Sequence record: MW679410.1
Strand: one strand, 5' to 3'
DNA length: 64,000 bases
From: Escherichia phage C6
Numbering within the stretch: the stretch's first letter is position 1; every line of letters begins with the position of its first letter. Both the position numbers and the translations under genes were made by a program. This document shows, piece after piece, positions 3,034-18,147 of the stretch. A model generated the notes under the pieces. The model saw only the letters and a list, made by a program, of their open reading frames with translations. It did no database searches and was not told the DNA's origin.

Positions 3034-4851
3034 TTACGACATCCAGGCCTTACGGAGTTGAGGGTCGTTTCCTAGGAGCATTTCGAACTGTTCTTTCCAA
3101 TCTTCAGGCAATTGAACTACATCAAATTTAGGGTCTTGAATCATTCGACGGTATTCGGCCTTCTCAAGAGAACCTAGTCCTTTGATATAACGAATAGAAT
3201 GTTTTGGTAGAGAGTCCTTAGCTTTGGTATAACTAGGAACATCATAGAACCATTCCTGTTCTTTACCGACCTGAGCAATAATCACTGGGGTTTTACAGAA
3301 TCGTACTCGGCCTTGTTCAAACAATTCAGGCCATTGACTAAAGAAGGCTAGCAATGATGGATAAATCGAACCAGTACCATCCACATCGGCATCAGTCATG
3401 ATAGCGATATTACGATAGTTAGTTTTCTCTGCAGGTTCACCAATAACCAGTCCAGTGATTGCACAGATATCAAATAGTTCCTTGTTCTTCATGATATCTG
3501 TTGCTGTCATTCCCCAGGTATTCATAACCTTACCACGTAATGGATACCCGCCTTGAAGGTCTTTATTACGAACTTCAATGAAAGGACCCATAGCGGAATC
3601 ACCTTCGGTTAGGAACAGGGTTGTATCAGCATCTTTGCCGTATAAGTTAGCTTTAATATGCTTATGGACCTTGGCTTTAGAAGCTTTCTTAGCGGCTTTA
3701 GTTTCAGCAGCCTTTTCAGCTGCTAATTTACGTGCTAAAGCAGCTTCAACGATAGGCATAATCAACCCTTCGTCTTTAAGAATATACTGTGAGATTTTCT
3801 TTGCATCAATTTGAATATGGTTACGAATTTCACCGAATGGTGACGTCAAACGTTCTTTAGTCTGGGAATCAAAACGCATATTACTCATATCGCGAATGAA
3901 CATCAGCATAGTTAAGCATTCTTTAACTCGTGCCTTACTTACTTCGATGCCTTTATATTTCTTCTTGATGCCTGGCAAGAGATGTTCGCAGATATCATCA
4001 AACACACATTCAACATGATGACCACCATTCTTAGTATGAATGTTATTTACATAAGTCAGTTGACGGAATCCATCTGGAGATGTAGTAAATGCCATTGAGA
4101 CATTATCGGTTTCTTGAATTACTACATCTTTACCAAATTGATTAGCATACTTTTTAAAGTTACCATCTACTTTTTTACCATTAAAAGTAAATTGGATACT
4201 AGGATAAATTACAGCTAGAGTTTTAAGACGATCTAGAGTAATATCCAGATAAATTTGTGACAGGCTATTTTCTTCGAAATGGCTAAAGTCTGGAGTGAAT
4301 ATAACCGAAGTACCCTTACCTTTAGATTTCTTAGTAGACCAACCTTTGTTTTCCATTCCATTAGAACAGTTGACAGTAATCTCATTCTCGCCATCAGAGG
4401 TGATGCCTGTAAACAAAACAGAGAAGATATTAGTTAAACTACTACCGACACCATTCATGCCGCCTGTCTTACGCTCTGCGTCATCTCCAAAGTTACCACC
4501 TGCCTTTGGGATAGTCCATGCAGCTACAGGACCTGGGATTTGTTCACCGTTTTGGTCGATGACCATTGCTTGTGGAATACCACGACCATTATCAGAAACT
4601 GAAACCTGGTTATTCTTAATTTGAACATCAATTTTATTTGCGAATTTAAAATTGGTACGAATAGCTTCATCGACAGAGTTATCAATGATTTCGTCAATTA
4701 ATTTAACCAGTCCAGGAACATAGTTTACCTGTGTAAAATTACCAAACAGGAATCGACCGTGAGCTTCATTAGCACTGGAGCCAATATACATCCCACTACG
4801 TTTTTTGATATGTTCAATGTCGGACAGTACTTTAATTTCATTCTTAATCAT
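3034..4851 (-). CDS. 39: DNA topoisomerase II large subunit, gp39 fused to gp60 region (GyrB-like ATPase plus Toprim)
   Basis: 605-aa ORF; N-terminus is GHKL ATPase; C-terminus carries the IAIMTDADVDGTGSIYPSLL...GLGSLEKAEY segment that in T4 belongs to gp60. Confidence 0.9.
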   Translation of the reverse strand: MIKNEIKVLSDIEHIKKRSGMYIGSSANEAHGRFLFGNFTQVNYVPGLVKLIDEIIDNSVDEAIRTNFKFANKIDVQIKNNQVSVSDNGRGIPQAMVIDQNGEQIPGPVAAWTIPKAGGNFGDDAERKTGGMNGVGSSLTNIFSVLFTGITSDGENEITVNCSNGMENKGWSTKKSKGKGTSVIFTPDFSHFEENSLSQIYLDITLDRLKTLAVIYPSIQFTFNGKKVDGNFKKYANQFGKDVVIQETDNVSMAFTTSPDGFRQLTYVNNIHTKNGGHHVECVFDDICEHLLPGIKKKYKGIEVSKARVKECLTMLMFIRDMSNMRFDSQTKERLTSPFGEIRNHIQIDAKKISQYILKDEGLIMPIVEAALARKLAAEKAAETKAAKKASKAKVHKHIKANLYGKDADTTLFLTEGDSAMGPFIEVRNKDLQGGYPLRGKVMNTWGMTATDIMKNKELFDICAITGLVIGEPAEKTNYRNIAIMTDADVDGTGSIYPSLLAFFSQWPELFEQGRVRFCKTPVIIAQVGKEQEWFYDVPSYTKAKDSLPKHSIRYIKGLGSLEKAEYRRMIQDPKFDVVQLPEDWKEQFEMLLGNDPQLRKAWMS

Positions 4852-4903
4852 GTTATTTCCTCATGTAGTAGGAGAATATTATCCCATTTCACTTAAAGCA
4901 TAA

Positions 4904-4919
4904 AAGGGCCGAAGCCCTT
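4904..4919 (-). other. RNA stem-loop with UUCG tetraloop
   Basis: Minus-strand AAGGGC-UUCG-GCCCUU immediately after the stop of the lipoprotein gene and upstream of gene 39. Confidence 0.45.
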
Positions 4920-5178
4920 AATCAAATCGAATGGTCGACTTTTTAAAGAATAATCCAGAACAAACAGTTCCTTCAACCCTTTTACCTGTTGGACCTACAG
5001 CAATAAAGCCCGTACGTTGGAAGTCATCTTCAGAACAGCCGAATAGGTTGTATCCTGTGATTTGGATTTGTTCGTAGCCATTTGCATCCAATACACGGGT
5101 AGCATTATCGGCATCAGTACAACCAACCAACGAAACTGCTAGTACAATAGCTGCAATAGAACGATTAATATATTTCAT
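4918..5178 (-). CDS. putative lipoprotein (86 aa)
   Basis: Signal peptide with lipobox AVSLVGC near N-terminus. Confidence 0.6.
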   Translation of the reverse strand: MKYINRSIAAIVLAVSLVGCTDADNATRVLDANGYEQIQITGYNLFGCSEDDFQRTGFIAVGPTGKRVEGTVCSGLFFKKSTIRFD

Positions 5179-5184
5179 AATTTC

Positions 5185-5361
5185 TCACTTAGTCAGCAGG
5201 TCGTAAAAACCGCCATTAACATGTTTAGGAGCCGAGACTAACCGAACAGCCAGCCGATGGCAATCAGGGCAAACGTCATTATCTCTTTCAGAGATTTTCT
5301 TGATTTTTTCGTATTCTTTCGAGCAGTCTTCAGATTGGCATTTATAATCATAAAGTGGCAT
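5185..5361 (-). CDS. small zinc-ribbon protein (58 aa)
   Basis: Hand-translated ORF MPLYDYKCQSEDCSKEYEK...CPDCHRLAV; two CxxC pairs; start overlaps stop of upstream gene region; fits gap exactly. Confidence 0.45.
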   Translation of the reverse strand: MPLYDYKCQSEDCSKEYEKIKKISERDNDVCPDCHRLAVRLVSAPKHVNGGFYDLLTK

Positions 5362-5362
5362 A

Positions 5363-5770
5363 TTATTCCTTAAAGTGTGCTTTCAACATCTGGTAAACGG
5401 TCCAGGCTTCAGAATTATTAGAGATAGTGATTTTAGTCAAAGGGAAATCACTCGGTTCGGACGGTTTATCACTATCATCGTAGTCATAATCACGGACTTC
5501 ATCCAATTCTTCGTCGCACTCAACTTCAACCATTTCGGTAAAAAATTTCCTCTCACTAGCGTATATAACCATATCTTTATTATCGCCGTAAACCAGGTCG
5601 AAGTTGGTTACACATCCATTTGAAATTTTAACCGGGGAAAAACCTTCACCTTCAATAATAACATCGGCTACAATATTATTGATACCTCTACGACGGAATT
5701 CAGCTTCTGCCGCATCATCTTTAAAATAGTACCATTTACCTTTTTCAAATTCAGGTTCCTGATTAAACAT
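5363..5770 (-). CDS. hypothetical protein (about 135 aa; goF-position gene)
   Basis: ORF track gives 5363..5863, but the internal ATG at 5770 (MFNQEPEF...) has GGAAGG SD and avoids overlapping the upstream ORF. Confidence 0.55.
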   Translation of the reverse strand: MFNQEPEFEKGKWYYFKDDAAEAEFRRRGINNIVADVIIEGEGFSPVKISNGCVTNFDLVYGDNKDMVIYASERKFFTEMVEVECDEELDEVRDYDYDDSDKPSEPSDFPLTKITISNNSEAWTVYQMLKAHFKE

Positions 5771-14666: not shown

Positions 14667-14674
14667 TATTTATA
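14667..14674 (-). promoter_or_regulatory. T4-type late promoter TATAAATA for soc
   Basis: Exact TATAAATA on the minus strand about 30 nt upstream of the soc ATG. Confidence 0.6.
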
Positions 14675-14676
14675 AC

Positions 14677-15198
14677 TTAATAACCTCGGTCTTGACGAGC
14701 AAAGTTCTCAGCATTTTTCAGGTAATACAACTTAAAGATTTCTTCAGCAGTCAGACCAAGACCTTGGAACATATTCAGAACAAAGTGCAGAATATCAATC
14801 ATCTCGAATTTAATTTCAAGCTGGTCTTCAGGAGAGAGTTCGTCAATACGACGGTTACGGAATTCACCGTGCTGAGCTTTCCAAGGCTTCCAGACGCTAG
14901 ATGCGGCTTTCTCACCATTACTCATGCCACCAAGAGAAGTCAACAGTTCACGGAATTCGTCATCAATATAATCTTTCTGGTTGCGAAGCCAATCGACAAC
15001 TTGACCTGCAGTAGCCAGTTCATCGGGGTTAGAGTTAAATTCAGATTTTTCAGTAGCCAAACGGACCTGTAATGATTTCTGCATATCAAGCATAACCTGC
15101 AGAGGGTCTTTATCTTCGTGAATCAAAGCATTAAAATAAGCTTCCTCAGCTTTATCAACACCAGCAATAAGTTGTGAGCATTCGTTAAAGTGTGCCAT
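14677..15198 (-). CDS. 56: dCTP pyrophosphatase gp56 (MazG-like)
   Basis: 173 aa; position and size match T4 gp56. Confidence 0.8.
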   Translation of the reverse strand: MAHFNECSQLIAGVDKAEEAYFNALIHEDKDPLQVMLDMQKSLQVRLATEKSEFNSNPDELATAGQVVDWLRNQKDYIDDEFRELLTSLGGMSNGEKAASSVWKPWKAQHGEFRNRRIDELSPEDQLEIKFEMIDILHFVLNMFQGLGLTAEEIFKLYYLKNAENFARQDRGY

Positions 15199-15290
15199 TA
15201 TATTTTTTTCCTTTTCAATTCATTAGTAAGTTAGATAATTATAAACTGTTAGATTAAAGCGAATAAATAATAATTTAACAGGAGGATAAC

Positions 15291-15491
15291 ATGGGCAGTA
15301 TTTTTTACCAAATCTGGAAATTGGCCGAAAAGAAAGACAAGAAAATGATGTTAGGTTTTCTTGCGCTAGACGTATTCCTTTGGAATCTTCTAGTAGTCCC
15401 TGTAGCCGCTAGCCAAGGGATAATTTTACCAGCGGTTACAATGGAACACGTGTTAAGCATAATTGGATTCTTTAGCGGAATCCACGCTTAA
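15291..15491 (+). CDS. small membrane protein (66 aa) on the opposite strand
   Basis: Plus-strand ORF with perfect AGGAGG SD 7 nt upstream of ATG; two hydrophobic helices; lies in a 290-nt gap between minus-strand genes 56 and 61. Confidence 0.5.
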   Translation: MGSIFYQIWKLAEKKDKKMMLGFLALDVFLWNLLVVPVAASQGIILPAVTMEHVLSIIGFFSGIHA

Positions 15492-16516
15492 ATTTTGGAA
15501 TATTTCGAAAGTCTCATTTTAGCCATTAGACCTTGGGCTATATTAGCTTTCATATATGCCAGTACATCATTTATATCAGCTTTATCTTTCATAATCATAT
15601 CATTTATATCTTTAGAAGGCCATGGAGCCTTGTCCCAGAATAGAACCCTTTCGCCAGCATCAACTAATCGTTGCATACGCTTAATTGTGTCAGGATGGCG
15701 GGGTTCATTGTCCATCACCCAGGCACGAGTTTCTTTACATGGAACCATAGCCAAGTCCAACGACCCGCCAGTAATTGCTATTGCATTCGGTACGAATAAT
15801 GAATCGATAGGACCTTCCATTACCCACACCAATTGACGTTCATCAACCGTATCCATTCCATATATTTTTGTAGCTTGGTCATGAGCTTTTATTGTAATAT
15901 ACTTTTGTGGAGCATCTTTACGTAAGGCTCGACCCTGAAAACTTTCAATTTGTTTATTCTTATTGAAAATTGGAATAACCAAACGAGGTTCAGGCATTTC
16001 TTTAGAATAGGTCCCTGGATTCACAGAGTTAACTAATGCAGGCCATTCTTTAGTAAACCATAGCCGATTCCATTTATTTTCAGGAATGCAACGCAACGTC
16101 ACATATTTGATAATAGGATGGTCCTTTGGCATTCTATCTAATCGTTCACAGAAATTAAGCTTTTCGATAATAGGCATCTTAGCTTTAATTTTTTCAGATA
16201 TCTCCACCTTAGGTGCAGCTTGTCTCCCGAACGATTGCTCTTTATGTTTCTCAAGAATATATTCACGATATAAATCAGGCTCGTATTCGTATAGATACTT
16301 CTTAATTCCTGCTGAATAATCACAGTTAAAACAGTGCAGCATTACGGAGCCGTCATTAGCAGGATAGGCCCAAAAACGAGCTTTGTTCTCATCTTTTAGG
16401 GAGTCACCGCATACACGACAACGGCAGTTTAATTTAAAATCACTACCGGTTACTTGTCTGAATTTAGGTTGGTAATTCAAGGCACGTACAGCAAATTCTC
16501 TATCGACATATGACAT
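15488..16516 (-). CDS. 61: DNA primase gp61
   Basis: 342 aa; N-terminal Cys4 zinc ribbon (CRCRVCGD...CFNCDY) then Toprim-like region; same length as T4 gp61. Confidence 0.9.
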   Translation of the reverse strand: MSYVDREFAVRALNYQPKFRQVTGSDFKLNCRCRVCGDSLKDENKARFWAYPANDGSVMLHCFNCDYSAGIKKYLYEYEPDLYREYILEKHKEQSFGRQAAPKVEISEKIKAKMPIIEKLNFCERLDRMPKDHPIIKYVTLRCIPENKWNRLWFTKEWPALVNSVNPGTYSKEMPEPRLVIPIFNKNKQIESFQGRALRKDAPQKYITIKAHDQATKIYGMDTVDERQLVWVMEGPIDSLFVPNAIAITGGSLDLAMVPCKETRAWVMDNEPRHPDTIKRMQRLVDAGERVLFWDKAPWPSKDINDMIMKDKADINDVLAYMKANIAQGLMAKMRLSKYSKI

Positions 16517-16554: not shown

Positions 16555-16716
16555 TCATTCGTTTTCGGATTTTTCTTTACGCTTTTTAGATGGGATTTGT
16601 TCAGGCCCTTTGTTGACGACAGCGCCTGAGGTAGTTCCGGAGGCAATAGCAGTAGGATTACCACCTGCATCACCTGCGACCATATCTTCGTTCATAACTT
16701 CTTTAAAAGATTTCAT
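16555..16716 (-). CDS. small hypothetical protein (53 aa)
   Basis: Hand-translated ORF MKSFKEVMNEDMVAGDAGGNPT...; AGGAG SD; TATAAATA-like element just upstream. Confidence 0.4.
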   Translation of the reverse strand: MKSFKEVMNEDMVAGDAGGNPTAIASGTTSGAVVNKGPEQIPSKKRKEKSENE

Positions 16717-16732
16717 AGGCTCCTGGCCTTAT

Positions 16733-16924
16733 TTATATTACGAAAATAGCTTTATCACCATTTGCATCAGTGACTTCATAGGTATCTTCGTGGTAAAGTG
16801 GAATAATCCAAGTCACACCATCACCAGCAATAATATGGATAGCTTCTTGGTCTTTTGATACGATTTCATATTCTTCGAATAACTCGAATACAGAAATCTT
16901 AGAGCCCGTACACATTGCACTCAT
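16733..16924 (-). CDS. hypothetical protein (63 aa)
   Basis: ORF. Confidence 0.5.
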   Translation of the reverse strand: MSAMCTGSKISVFELFEEYEIVSKDQEAIHIIAGDGVTWIIPLYHEDTYEVTDANGDKAIFVI

Positions 16925-17562: not shown

Positions 17563-17848
17563 CTGTCACCTCTTTAACGATATTTTTGTTATCGAAATTG
17601 GCATCGCAATACAAAACATAGTTATATTGCATAACACCGCTTGAAGCTAATTGGTCTGACACTTCTTTAGCCATATCAGGGCGGTCGCGTTTAGTGATGT
17701 TCATGATATCAGCATAAATCTGATGTTCAACCGATTCTTGGTCTGCAGTCATAGACCATTCACAAAGGTCTTTATCCAATCCAGCCGTAACTGGAGCGGT
17801 GCCACATGATGCTACTGTAAGGATTGCTGCGATTAATAACTTTTTCAT
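17555..17848 (-). CDS. sp: spackle-like periplasmic protein (superinfection exclusion)
   Basis: Start moved to internal ATG giving MKKLLIAAILTVASCG signal peptide; about 97 aa; position in the 61.x block matches T4 sp. Confidence 0.55.
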   Translation of the reverse strand: MKKLLIAAILTVASCGTAPVTAGLDKDLCEWSMTADQESVEHQIYADIMNITKRDRPDMAKEVSDQLASSGVMQYNYVLYCDANFDNKNIVKEVTGE

Positions 17849-17876
17849 TTTTAACTCCTCGTTAGTTGATAGGTCT

Positions 17877-17906
17877 ATAGTATCACTACCATAGACCGTT
17901 GTAAAC
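17877..17906 (-). promoter_or_regulatory. T4-type early promoter cassette
   Basis: Minus strand GTTTAC, 18-nt spacer, TACTAT, then conserved CTATCAAC leader. Confidence 0.6.
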
Positions 17907-17907
17907 A

Positions 17908-18147
17908 CTATTTCAACGAATCTTCTAAATAAATTTTACGGAATTTACGTTTTGTCTGACGAATCTGACGCTTAGTAGGCTTCACAGGAAATTCGAAGAA
18001 CTCTACGTATTCTTGTTCGTAATCGTTGTGACCGACTGAAAGAACCAGTTCCCAGTTGCTTACAGTACGTTGGATAAACATATTATGCTTACCAAAAGAT
18101 TTGTTCCAAAAAGAACTGGGAGTTGGTTTCATTAATACAATATTCAT
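17908..18147 (-). CDS. small basic protein with PTKRQ motif (79 aa)
   Basis: ORF; paralog of 16899..17120. Confidence 0.55.
   Translation of the reverse strand: MNIVLMKPTPSSFWNKSFGKHNMFIQRTVSNWELVLSVGHNDYEQEYVEFFEFPVKPTKRQIRQTKRKFRKIYLEDSLK

Follow-up and report, generated by a model that had tools for sequence, protein, structure and literature searches.

Judged by sequence comparison, the lone plus-strand open reading frame (ORF) of 66 aa that lies between dCTPase gene 56 and primase gene 61 is a true gene, strongly conserved among T-even phages. It is probably also correct that this gene belongs to the late class and encodes a bitopic membrane protein in the N-in/C-out orientation. The gene family is already catalogued and is not a new kind of system. 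The original prediction of a small membrane-protein gene running opposite to the surrounding early and middle genes turned out to describe a genuine gene, which is under purifying selection and is present in about 800 phage records. The window, i.e. the whole 64-kb stretch of DNA that was analysed, comes from a Dhakavirus (a JS98-like T-even phage), and the 2 kb around the ORF is 92-96% identical to many Dhakavirus genomes. The features at this locus are the following:

14677..15198, minus strand: dCTPase gene 56 (annotation of near-identical phages and Pfam)
15238..15261, minus strand: sequence resembling a MotA-type middle promoter of gene 56 (cGCTTTA, 11 nt, TATAAT), given as context (consensus match only)
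15262..15269, plus strand: late-promoter-like element AATAAATA of the gp55 type, consensus TATAAATA at -13 to -6 (motif position and conservation)
15280..15285, plus strand: Shine-Dalgarno sequence AGGAGG, 5 nt 5' of the ATG (sequence)
15291..15491, plus strand: coding sequence of the 66-aa protein, phrog_2024 / RB69ORF029w family (translation; profile match, E 5.4e-28)
15345..15413, plus strand: predicted transmembrane helix, codons 19-41 (hydropathy, AF2 and TMHMM of RB69ORF029w)
15381..15446, plus strand: signature W-N-x4-P-x-A-x-[T/A/S]-x-G-x3-P-x2-T-x-E, codons 31-52 (column counts)
15464..15484, minus strand: weak hairpin just 3' of the gene 61 stop codon and inside the last codons of the ORF, given as context (fold)
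15488..15491, no strand assigned: 4-nt TTAA palindrome common to the stop codons of the ORF (plus) and gene 61 (minus) (sequence)
15488..16516, minus strand: primase gene 61 (annotation of near-identical phages and Pfam)

The ORF was found as predicted, with an ATG start and 66 residues at 15291..15491 on the plus strand; its translated product is MGSIFYQIWKLAEKKDKKMMLGFLALDVFLWNLLVVPVAASQGIILPAVTMEHVLSIIGFFSGIHA. Likewise, the predicted AGGAGG is present at 15280-15285, 5 nt before the ATG, and the flanking genes are indeed 56 and 61: in the annotations of near-identical Dhakavirus genomes, the genes around the ORF appear as soc, 56 (dCTPase) and 61 (primase), names that Pfam supports. The gap between genes 56 and 61 measures 289 nt, in accordance with the 290 nt first given, but the AT-richness ascribed to it does not extend beyond the 92-nt untranslated stretch 15199-15290, where the GC content is about 24%, whereas the body of the ORF has 36-45%, matching the neighbouring genes. 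The description of the neighbours as convergent or divergent could be sharpened. The ORF is divergent (head-to-head) with respect to gene 56, which starts at 15198, and convergent (tail-to-tail) with gene 61, with which it shares the 4-nt stop overlap. The same TTAA overlap is present in T4, RB18, RB69, R3_1, VR26, Ursula, CIP9, STP4-a and PEi20. A GGAGG or AAGGAG in front of the ATG is kept in 13 of the 13 lineages aligned, and in the predicted fold of the window both the Shine-Dalgarno sequence and the ATG are unpaired, the initiation region being free of structure (fold z = +0.69).

Codon analysis of 15 nucleotide sequences gave pS values of 0.6-0.98, i.e. saturated, against pN values of 0.17-0.34, and dN/dS was about 0.06 in the two closest informative pairs (the window versus 04086, and PEi20 versus CIP9). 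The saturation of synonymous sites together with the low pN and dN/dS shows that the ORF is protein-coding. Length (52-74 aa), position and motif are retained down to about 20% identity. We found no conserved ORF on the opposite strand; a minus-strand ORF of 51 aa at 15305..15460 was rejected because T4, with only 20-28-aa ORFs there, has no counterpart.

The window protein matches the profile of phrog_2024, a family that includes RB69ORF029w, over its full length (residues 1-64 against profile positions 1-64 of 65). It belongs to the Dhakavirus/Marfavirus subtype (MG[ST]IFYQIWK...), which shares about 20% identity with the T4/RB69 subtype. With the window protein as the query, tblastn detected Dhakavirus-type members in 132 phage records (E <= 0.01), and a T4-type query returned 693 phage records (E <= 0.001); with both queries, the family amounts to the roughly 800 records mentioned above. 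A primase at least 60% identical to that of the window is found in about 1,010 records. Since a profile search among 1.8 billion representative proteins returned just 15 clusters, the phrog_2024 family is narrow. Conservation in related genomes had been named as a check on the original prediction, and the gene proved to be kept across at least nine T-even lineages.

The annotation of the gene is uneven. Many records label the family member "hypothetical protein", RB18 describes it as "similar to RB69ORF029w; RB32ORF030w", RB69 lists it as RB69ORF029w, and the records of JS98, JS10 and IME08 carry no annotation of the 66-aa gene. In T4 (NC_000866.4), the gap between dam and gene 61 holds a homologous 66-aa ORF at 17738..17938 on the plus strand, with AGGAGG 6 nt 5' of the ATG and the TTAA stop overlap with gene 61, and no CDS is recorded for it; the T4 record X01416 from 1984 likewise has none. 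Two family members bear misnames, "DNA packaging ATPase" in Klebsiella phage SAKp28 and "Holin" in phage OE5505 (P0024 and P0057). Two records seemed to place the gene at a second genomic location beside a "thymidylate synthase", which we rejected because the neighbour is a mislabelled primase (in OR842557, at 4198-5442).

The primase gene and the ORF abut tail-to-tail, usually with the 4-nt stop overlap, in Dhakavirus, Tequatrovirus, Mosigvirus, Kanagawavirus, Jiaodavirus, Gelderlandvirus, Marfavirus, Gaprivervirus and Citrobacter phage Ursula, and its upstream neighbour varies by lineage (gene 56, dam, mobE or other small ORFs). No 66-aa gene lies at the primase 3' position in RB43, 44RR, an RB49-like phage, phiR1-RT and a Providencia phage. 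The Gaprivervirus VR26 (retrieved piece 995-1401) has two tandem paralogs, 8 nt apart, behind a single CATAAATA: VR26_031 is of the T4/RB69 type and VR26_032 of the Dhakavirus type. MN01, SP18 and others likewise have two locations in each record. Some Dhakavirus genomes carry the homing-endonuclease gene mobE as an insertion between gene 56 and the 66-aa ORF, and in IME08 this insertion (retrieved piece 682-1338) stops just 5' of the late-promoter motif.

The original prediction had found no canonical early or late promoter and had regarded AATAAATA as the nearest late-like element. The element is present at 15262-15269, where a late promoter is conserved in 13 of 13 lineages, which supersedes the first statement, and "late-like" does not do it justice, since an A at position -13 occurs at nine of 50 listed T4 sites. 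When the 13 lineages are aligned on their start codons, every one has a TAAATA core 20-28 nt 5' of the ATG, while the remaining upstream sequence is unrelated among them; the per-lineage shuffle probability of TAAATA is 0.01-0.06. The forms of the element are distributed as follows:

TATAAATA (canonical): Q7622, R3_1, CIP9
AATAAATA: the window, RB18, RB69, KpV477
GATAAATA: T4
CATAAATA: PEi20, VR26
ATTAAATA: STP4-a, SEA1, Ursula

IME08, of the same genus as the window phage, has the canonical TATAAATA at the identical distance of 21 nt from the ATG, although mobE has replaced everything upstream, and is the fourth retrieved genome with the canonical form besides Q7622, R3_1 and CIP9. The T4 ORF has NATAAATA 21 nt 5' of its ATG, and its promoter variant is GATAAATA; this variant and the ATTAAATA of three lineages are rarer forms, a point that counts against a late promoter. 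The 50 listed late promoters of T4 comprise 32 perfect matches, nine sites with A at -13 and one with TA changed to AT, so that A(-13) is the natural deviation met most often; such variants are reported to serve as promoters in vitro, and RNA 5' ends formed in vivo have been connected with them (Geiduschek and Kassavetis, PMC2988020). In other T4-like phages, position -13 is A or T (Nolan et al., PMC1524935). As a caveat, the hidden Markov model of Nolan et al. called no late promoter 5' of RB69ORF029w. On both strands of the 64 kb, AATAAATA occurs three times, against about nine copies expected from dinucleotide shuffles. Because of the conserved position, the canonical forms in relatives, the A(-13) precedent and the rarity in the window, AATAAATA at 15262-15269 is very probably a real gp55-type late promoter of the ORF, and the 66-aa gene is apparently switched on late in infection. 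Genes of the T4 late type, which depend on gp55, gp33 and gp45, have a TATAAATA-type element about 10 bp upstream of the transcription start and no -35 element, and AATAAATA fits this pattern. The scarcity of AATAAATA across the window may reflect avoidance of spurious late promoters.

Scans of the region revealed no excess of sigma-70-type promoters over shuffles (5 found, 4.0 expected) and no excess of terminators. The hairpins at the junction of gene 61 and the ORF are neither significant in the fold (z -0.64 and -1.33) nor conserved in position, and we therefore rejected a conserved RNA structure there; an Rfam search at the ORF also gave no match. A search of the accessible literature for expression or functional data on the ORF in T4 or its relatives found none, be it a transcript, a start site, a peptide or a phenotype.

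Several elements around the ORF concern the transcription of its neighbours. The weak hairpin of the window lies in the last codons of the ORF, whereas in Tequatrovirus the annotated terminator of the primase gene sits in the first codons (Yersinia phage fPS-65, retrieved piece 605-645); it consists of ATGGCA...TGCCAT followed by a T-run on the minus strand, within codons 2-15 of the ORF, at about 3250-3285 of the retrieved piece in T4. A hairpin of high GC content lies between the two genes in KpV477. The middle-promoter look-alike lies about 40 nt upstream of gene 56, back-to-back with the plus-strand late element, in a layout comparable to that in X01416, where the T4 promoter P(M)16.53 precedes gene 56/69. 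In T4, the middle promoter of gene 56 that corresponds to it is linked to the origin oriA, and IME08 has a perfect TGCTTTA at the equivalent place, upstream of mobE. A perfect TATAAATA on the minus strand at 16730-16737, 13 nt upstream of a 53-aa gene 61.1-like ORF (16555..16716), would give late minus-strand transcription toward the primase gene, converging on the small ORF. Another perfect TATAAATA, at 14667-14674 on the minus strand, is located 31 nt upstream of soc.

The protein had been predicted to be a two-helix membrane protein. Its membrane nature is supported, but two membrane-spanning helices are probably wrong. The AF2 model contains helices at residues 3-14, 16-41 and 51-62, with a moderate overall pLDDT of 71 and values of 81-86 in helix 16-41. 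The last of these helices comprises only 12 residues, too short to span a membrane, which leaves one probable transmembrane helix (~16-41) and a 12-residue C-terminal helix. TMHMM for RB69ORF029w likewise gives one transmembrane segment, 21-41, and SignalP no signal peptide (Nolan 2006, suppl. file 2). Hydropathy, the AlphaFold model and the published TMHMM result agree on a single membrane helix, and by hydropathy this helix is marginally hydrophobic and contains D27 and N32. The N-terminal segment is basic (K10, K14, K15, K17, K18) and the C-terminal part acidic, which suggests an N-in/C-out orientation according to the positive-inside rule. These predictions are best accounted for by a single transmembrane helix in the N-in/C-out orientation and, on the periplasmic side, a short helix of amphipathic character.

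The conserved signature falls on the periplasmic end of the transmembrane helix and the next loop. Column counts over 57 sequences showed W31 and P37 in all 57, N32 in 56, G43, P47 and E/D52 in 55 each, A39 in 54 and T50 in 49. The signature is retained in the two most distant clusters of the family, P0074 and P0075, which are members of phrog_2024 with E values of 6e-11 and 9e-10, respectively. Their contigs are metagenomic and not T4-like: one is siphovirus-like with a serine recombinase, and the other has internal-virion-protein-like genes. On both contigs (L024 9260-10210 and L025 9272-10159), the microprotein is the third member of a module with a 94-aa membrane and coiled-coil protein and endonuclease VII, located on the same strand at the end of the structural operon. 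This placement points again to late expression. In the case of P0074, the phage looks temperate, and the gene stands last in its tail operon with the integrase as neighbour, a setting typical of morons. P0075 has a marginal match to the PHROG holin family phrog_3427 (E 0.002), and its 94-aa neighbour has marginal matches to Rz-like spanin families (E ~0.006); as pointers to lysis, these sequence matches at the locus of the distant members (E 0.002-0.006) are only hints. Among isolated phages, neither a search with the 94-aa protein nor a DNA search with the three-gene module gave a match.

Searches for a known function returned little beyond the family itself. For the window protein, there was no Pfam family at E <= 10, no PADLOC match and no meaningful NCBIfam match, the single NCBIfam line (SspI, E 0.12) being noise. 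In PHROG, the window and T4 proteins matched only phrog_2024 even at E <= 1. A profile search of the PDB gave chance matches to membrane helices only (E >= 0.26). Comparison of the AF2 model with viral structures, the scope of the fold search, gave family members only (E >= 0.0095), and no meaningful distant match can be expected from a helical model of 66 residues with a pLDDT of 71. A relationship to Imm or Sp was likewise not detected, as no Pfam, NCBIfam or PADLOC family matched; the absence of any Pfam match at E <= 10 rules out the Imm and Sp families, provided that Pfam includes them.

How the gene might work can be outlined from these data. It would be transcribed opposite to its early and middle neighbours from the gp55/gp33-dependent late promoter AATAAATA, an A(-13) variant of TATAAATA. 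The inferred transcription start is at about 15275, which would leave a leader of some 16 nt, with translation beginning at the strong, unstructured AGGAGG site. The product would consist of a cytoplasmic, amphipathic basic N terminus, a transmembrane helix (~19-41) and a 25-residue periplasmic tail made up of the conserved loop and the short amphipathic helix. The invariant W31 and P37, with the near-invariant N32, A39 and G43, cluster at the outer end of the helix, which suggests that the protein binds a conserved partner in the envelope, helix to helix or next to the membrane, and does not itself act as an enzyme or channel. Our best guess, a tentative one, is an accessory role in late envelope events, e.g. 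in lysis timing or lysis inhibition. The lysis role itself is a guess: T4 already has a lysis set comprising a holin, two antiholins and spanins, the C terminus of the ORF protein is unlike that of holins, no holin family was matched, and the gene is absent from this position in the RB49-, RB43-, 44RR- and phiR1-RT-like phages.

The original prediction had pointed to exclusion or immunity functions, for which we found no support, given the gp55-type late promoter and the lack of any Imm/Sp, PADLOC or NCBIfam match. According to this explanation, the membrane protein would keep secondary phages from penetrating the envelope or bringing in their DNA, as T4 Imm or HK97 gp15 do. As a small inner-membrane protein, the product has the right size, and HK97 gp15 provides a precedent for a small inner-membrane exclusion protein encoded within a late (tail) operon (PMC3594210). 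The position of P0074 at the end of a tail operon beside an integrase is also typical of morons, and the two diverged paralogs kept adjacent in Gaprivervirus are what one would expect of specificity variants. However, T-even phages establish exclusion within minutes through imm and sp, both early genes, and T4 Imm and Sp are expressed early. The conserved promoter of the 66-aa gene is of the late class and therefore a poor fit, and the gene has neither a position on the early strand nor a standout sigma-70-type promoter. The protein also resembles no Pfam or PADLOC family in sequence, and its most conserved part is invariant across genera, whereas determinants of exclusion specificity usually diversify. 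We consider this function unlikely.

Rather improbable, too, is that this late gene, kept in most Tevenvirinae, encodes a new kind of envelope effector that also travels in unrelated phages within the three-gene module, whether as a transmembrane microprotein tuning holin T, lysis inhibition or another late membrane step by helix-helix binding, or as a 25-residue periplasmic peptide delivered by a signal peptide. The latter variant can also stand by itself. Residues 1-41 would then be a long signal peptide, cut by signal peptidase I (SPase I) after A39-x-[T/A/S]41, and a hydrophobic peptide of 25 residues would be freed to the periplasm or the outer leaflet. The basic n-region, the hydrophobic core and the invariant P37 conform to this layout. 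A39-x-[T/A/S]41 after P37 fits the SPase I rule, with A at -3 and T, A or S at -1 in 54 of 57 sequences each, and the T4-type members read A-I-A|H-G. Nevertheless, T occupies -1 in about half of the sequences. Threonine is a poor signal peptidase I residue at this position. The hydrophobic core of 18-22 residues resembles that of an anchor and includes the invariant W31 and the nearly invariant N32, which would be unexpected in a disposable signal peptide. Such a long core with an invariant W31, together with the negative SignalP result for RB69ORF029w, argues for an uncleaved anchor and leaves the secreted peptide quite doubtful.

A true holin or pinholin, which would oligomerise via its polar transmembrane helix and permeabilise the inner membrane, is very unlikely. 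In its favour are the small size, the apparently late expression, a single helix that is weakly hydrophobic and contains polar residues, the "Holin" label of one family member in UniProt and the marginal match of P0075 to phrog_3427. The UniProt label, however, is an unreviewed prediction, and the window and T4 proteins match phrog_2024 but no PHROG or Pfam holin family. The usual holin has a charged C terminus, the reverse of the ORF protein, whose charged segment is N-terminal and whose C terminus is hydrophobic, lacking a charged hydrophilic tail. In addition, T-even phages already use holin T.

The least probable explanation is a function at the RNA level, in which a late plus-strand transcript running antisense into gene 61 helps in its shut-off, or in which the region is a primase terminator plus a gene 56 promoter and the ORF is incidental: the convergent layout with overlapping stop codons, the lack of a strong plus-strand terminator in most lineages and the terminator-like hairpins of the primase transcript within the ORF are in line with it, but it is hard to reconcile with strong purifying selection at the protein level with saturated synonymous sites, with hairpins that are neither conserved in position nor significant, with the GC-rich hairpin between the ORF and gene 61 in KpV477, which should confine the transcript to the ORF, and with the lack of an Rfam match. 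An antisense side effect alongside the protein is possible. The candidate readings overlap in part, and the remaining probability belongs to something else.

Few viruses have been studied as thoroughly as T4 and its relatives, and relatives of T4 are widely used in phage therapy cocktails. Purifying selection keeps the 66-aa gene in roughly 800 sequenced phages, yet the T4 reference has neither an entry nor a name for it. The present analysis gives annotators grounds to add the gene to T4, JS98, JS10 and IME08, and the assignment as a probable membrane protein of the late class reduces the experimental work to a handful of simple tests. Its value lies in tidying the annotation and in pointing to a cheap experiment.

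Compared with known systems, T4 Imm and Sp resemble the ORF protein as small T-even envelope proteins encoded a few kilobases away in the same early-gene arm; in RB69, sp and imm are near gene 61. The genes imm and sp are on the early strand, and their products have no detectable sequence relationship to the ORF protein, whereas the ORF follows a late-type promoter on the other strand. Imm is a protein with two membrane helices, Sp a periplasmic one. HK97 gp15, a moron exclusion protein of the YebO family, is a small inner-membrane protein encoded among late genes (PMC3594210), resembling the context of P0074. It differs in being unrelated in sequence and expressed from a prophage, whereas the phage of the window is of the virulent T-even type. 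The T7 holin gp17.5 and the T4 antiholin RI are of similar size, late, and have a single membrane helix with polar residues, RI in the N-in/C-out orientation. Neither is homologous to the ORF protein, whose periplasmic part has only about 25 residues and whose gene is near no lysis gene, and the charge distribution of T7 gp17.5 is opposite to that of the ORF protein. The T4 ORF at 17738..17938 shares the length of 66 aa and the TTAA overlap with that of the window and differs in the promoter form GATAAATA, in having dam upstream and in the spacing of AGGAGG from the ATG (6 versus 5 nt). Finally, phrog_2024 with RB69ORF029w and RB32ORF030w has the same length, the same tail-to-tail position relative to the primase gene and the same signature, and nothing essential differs.
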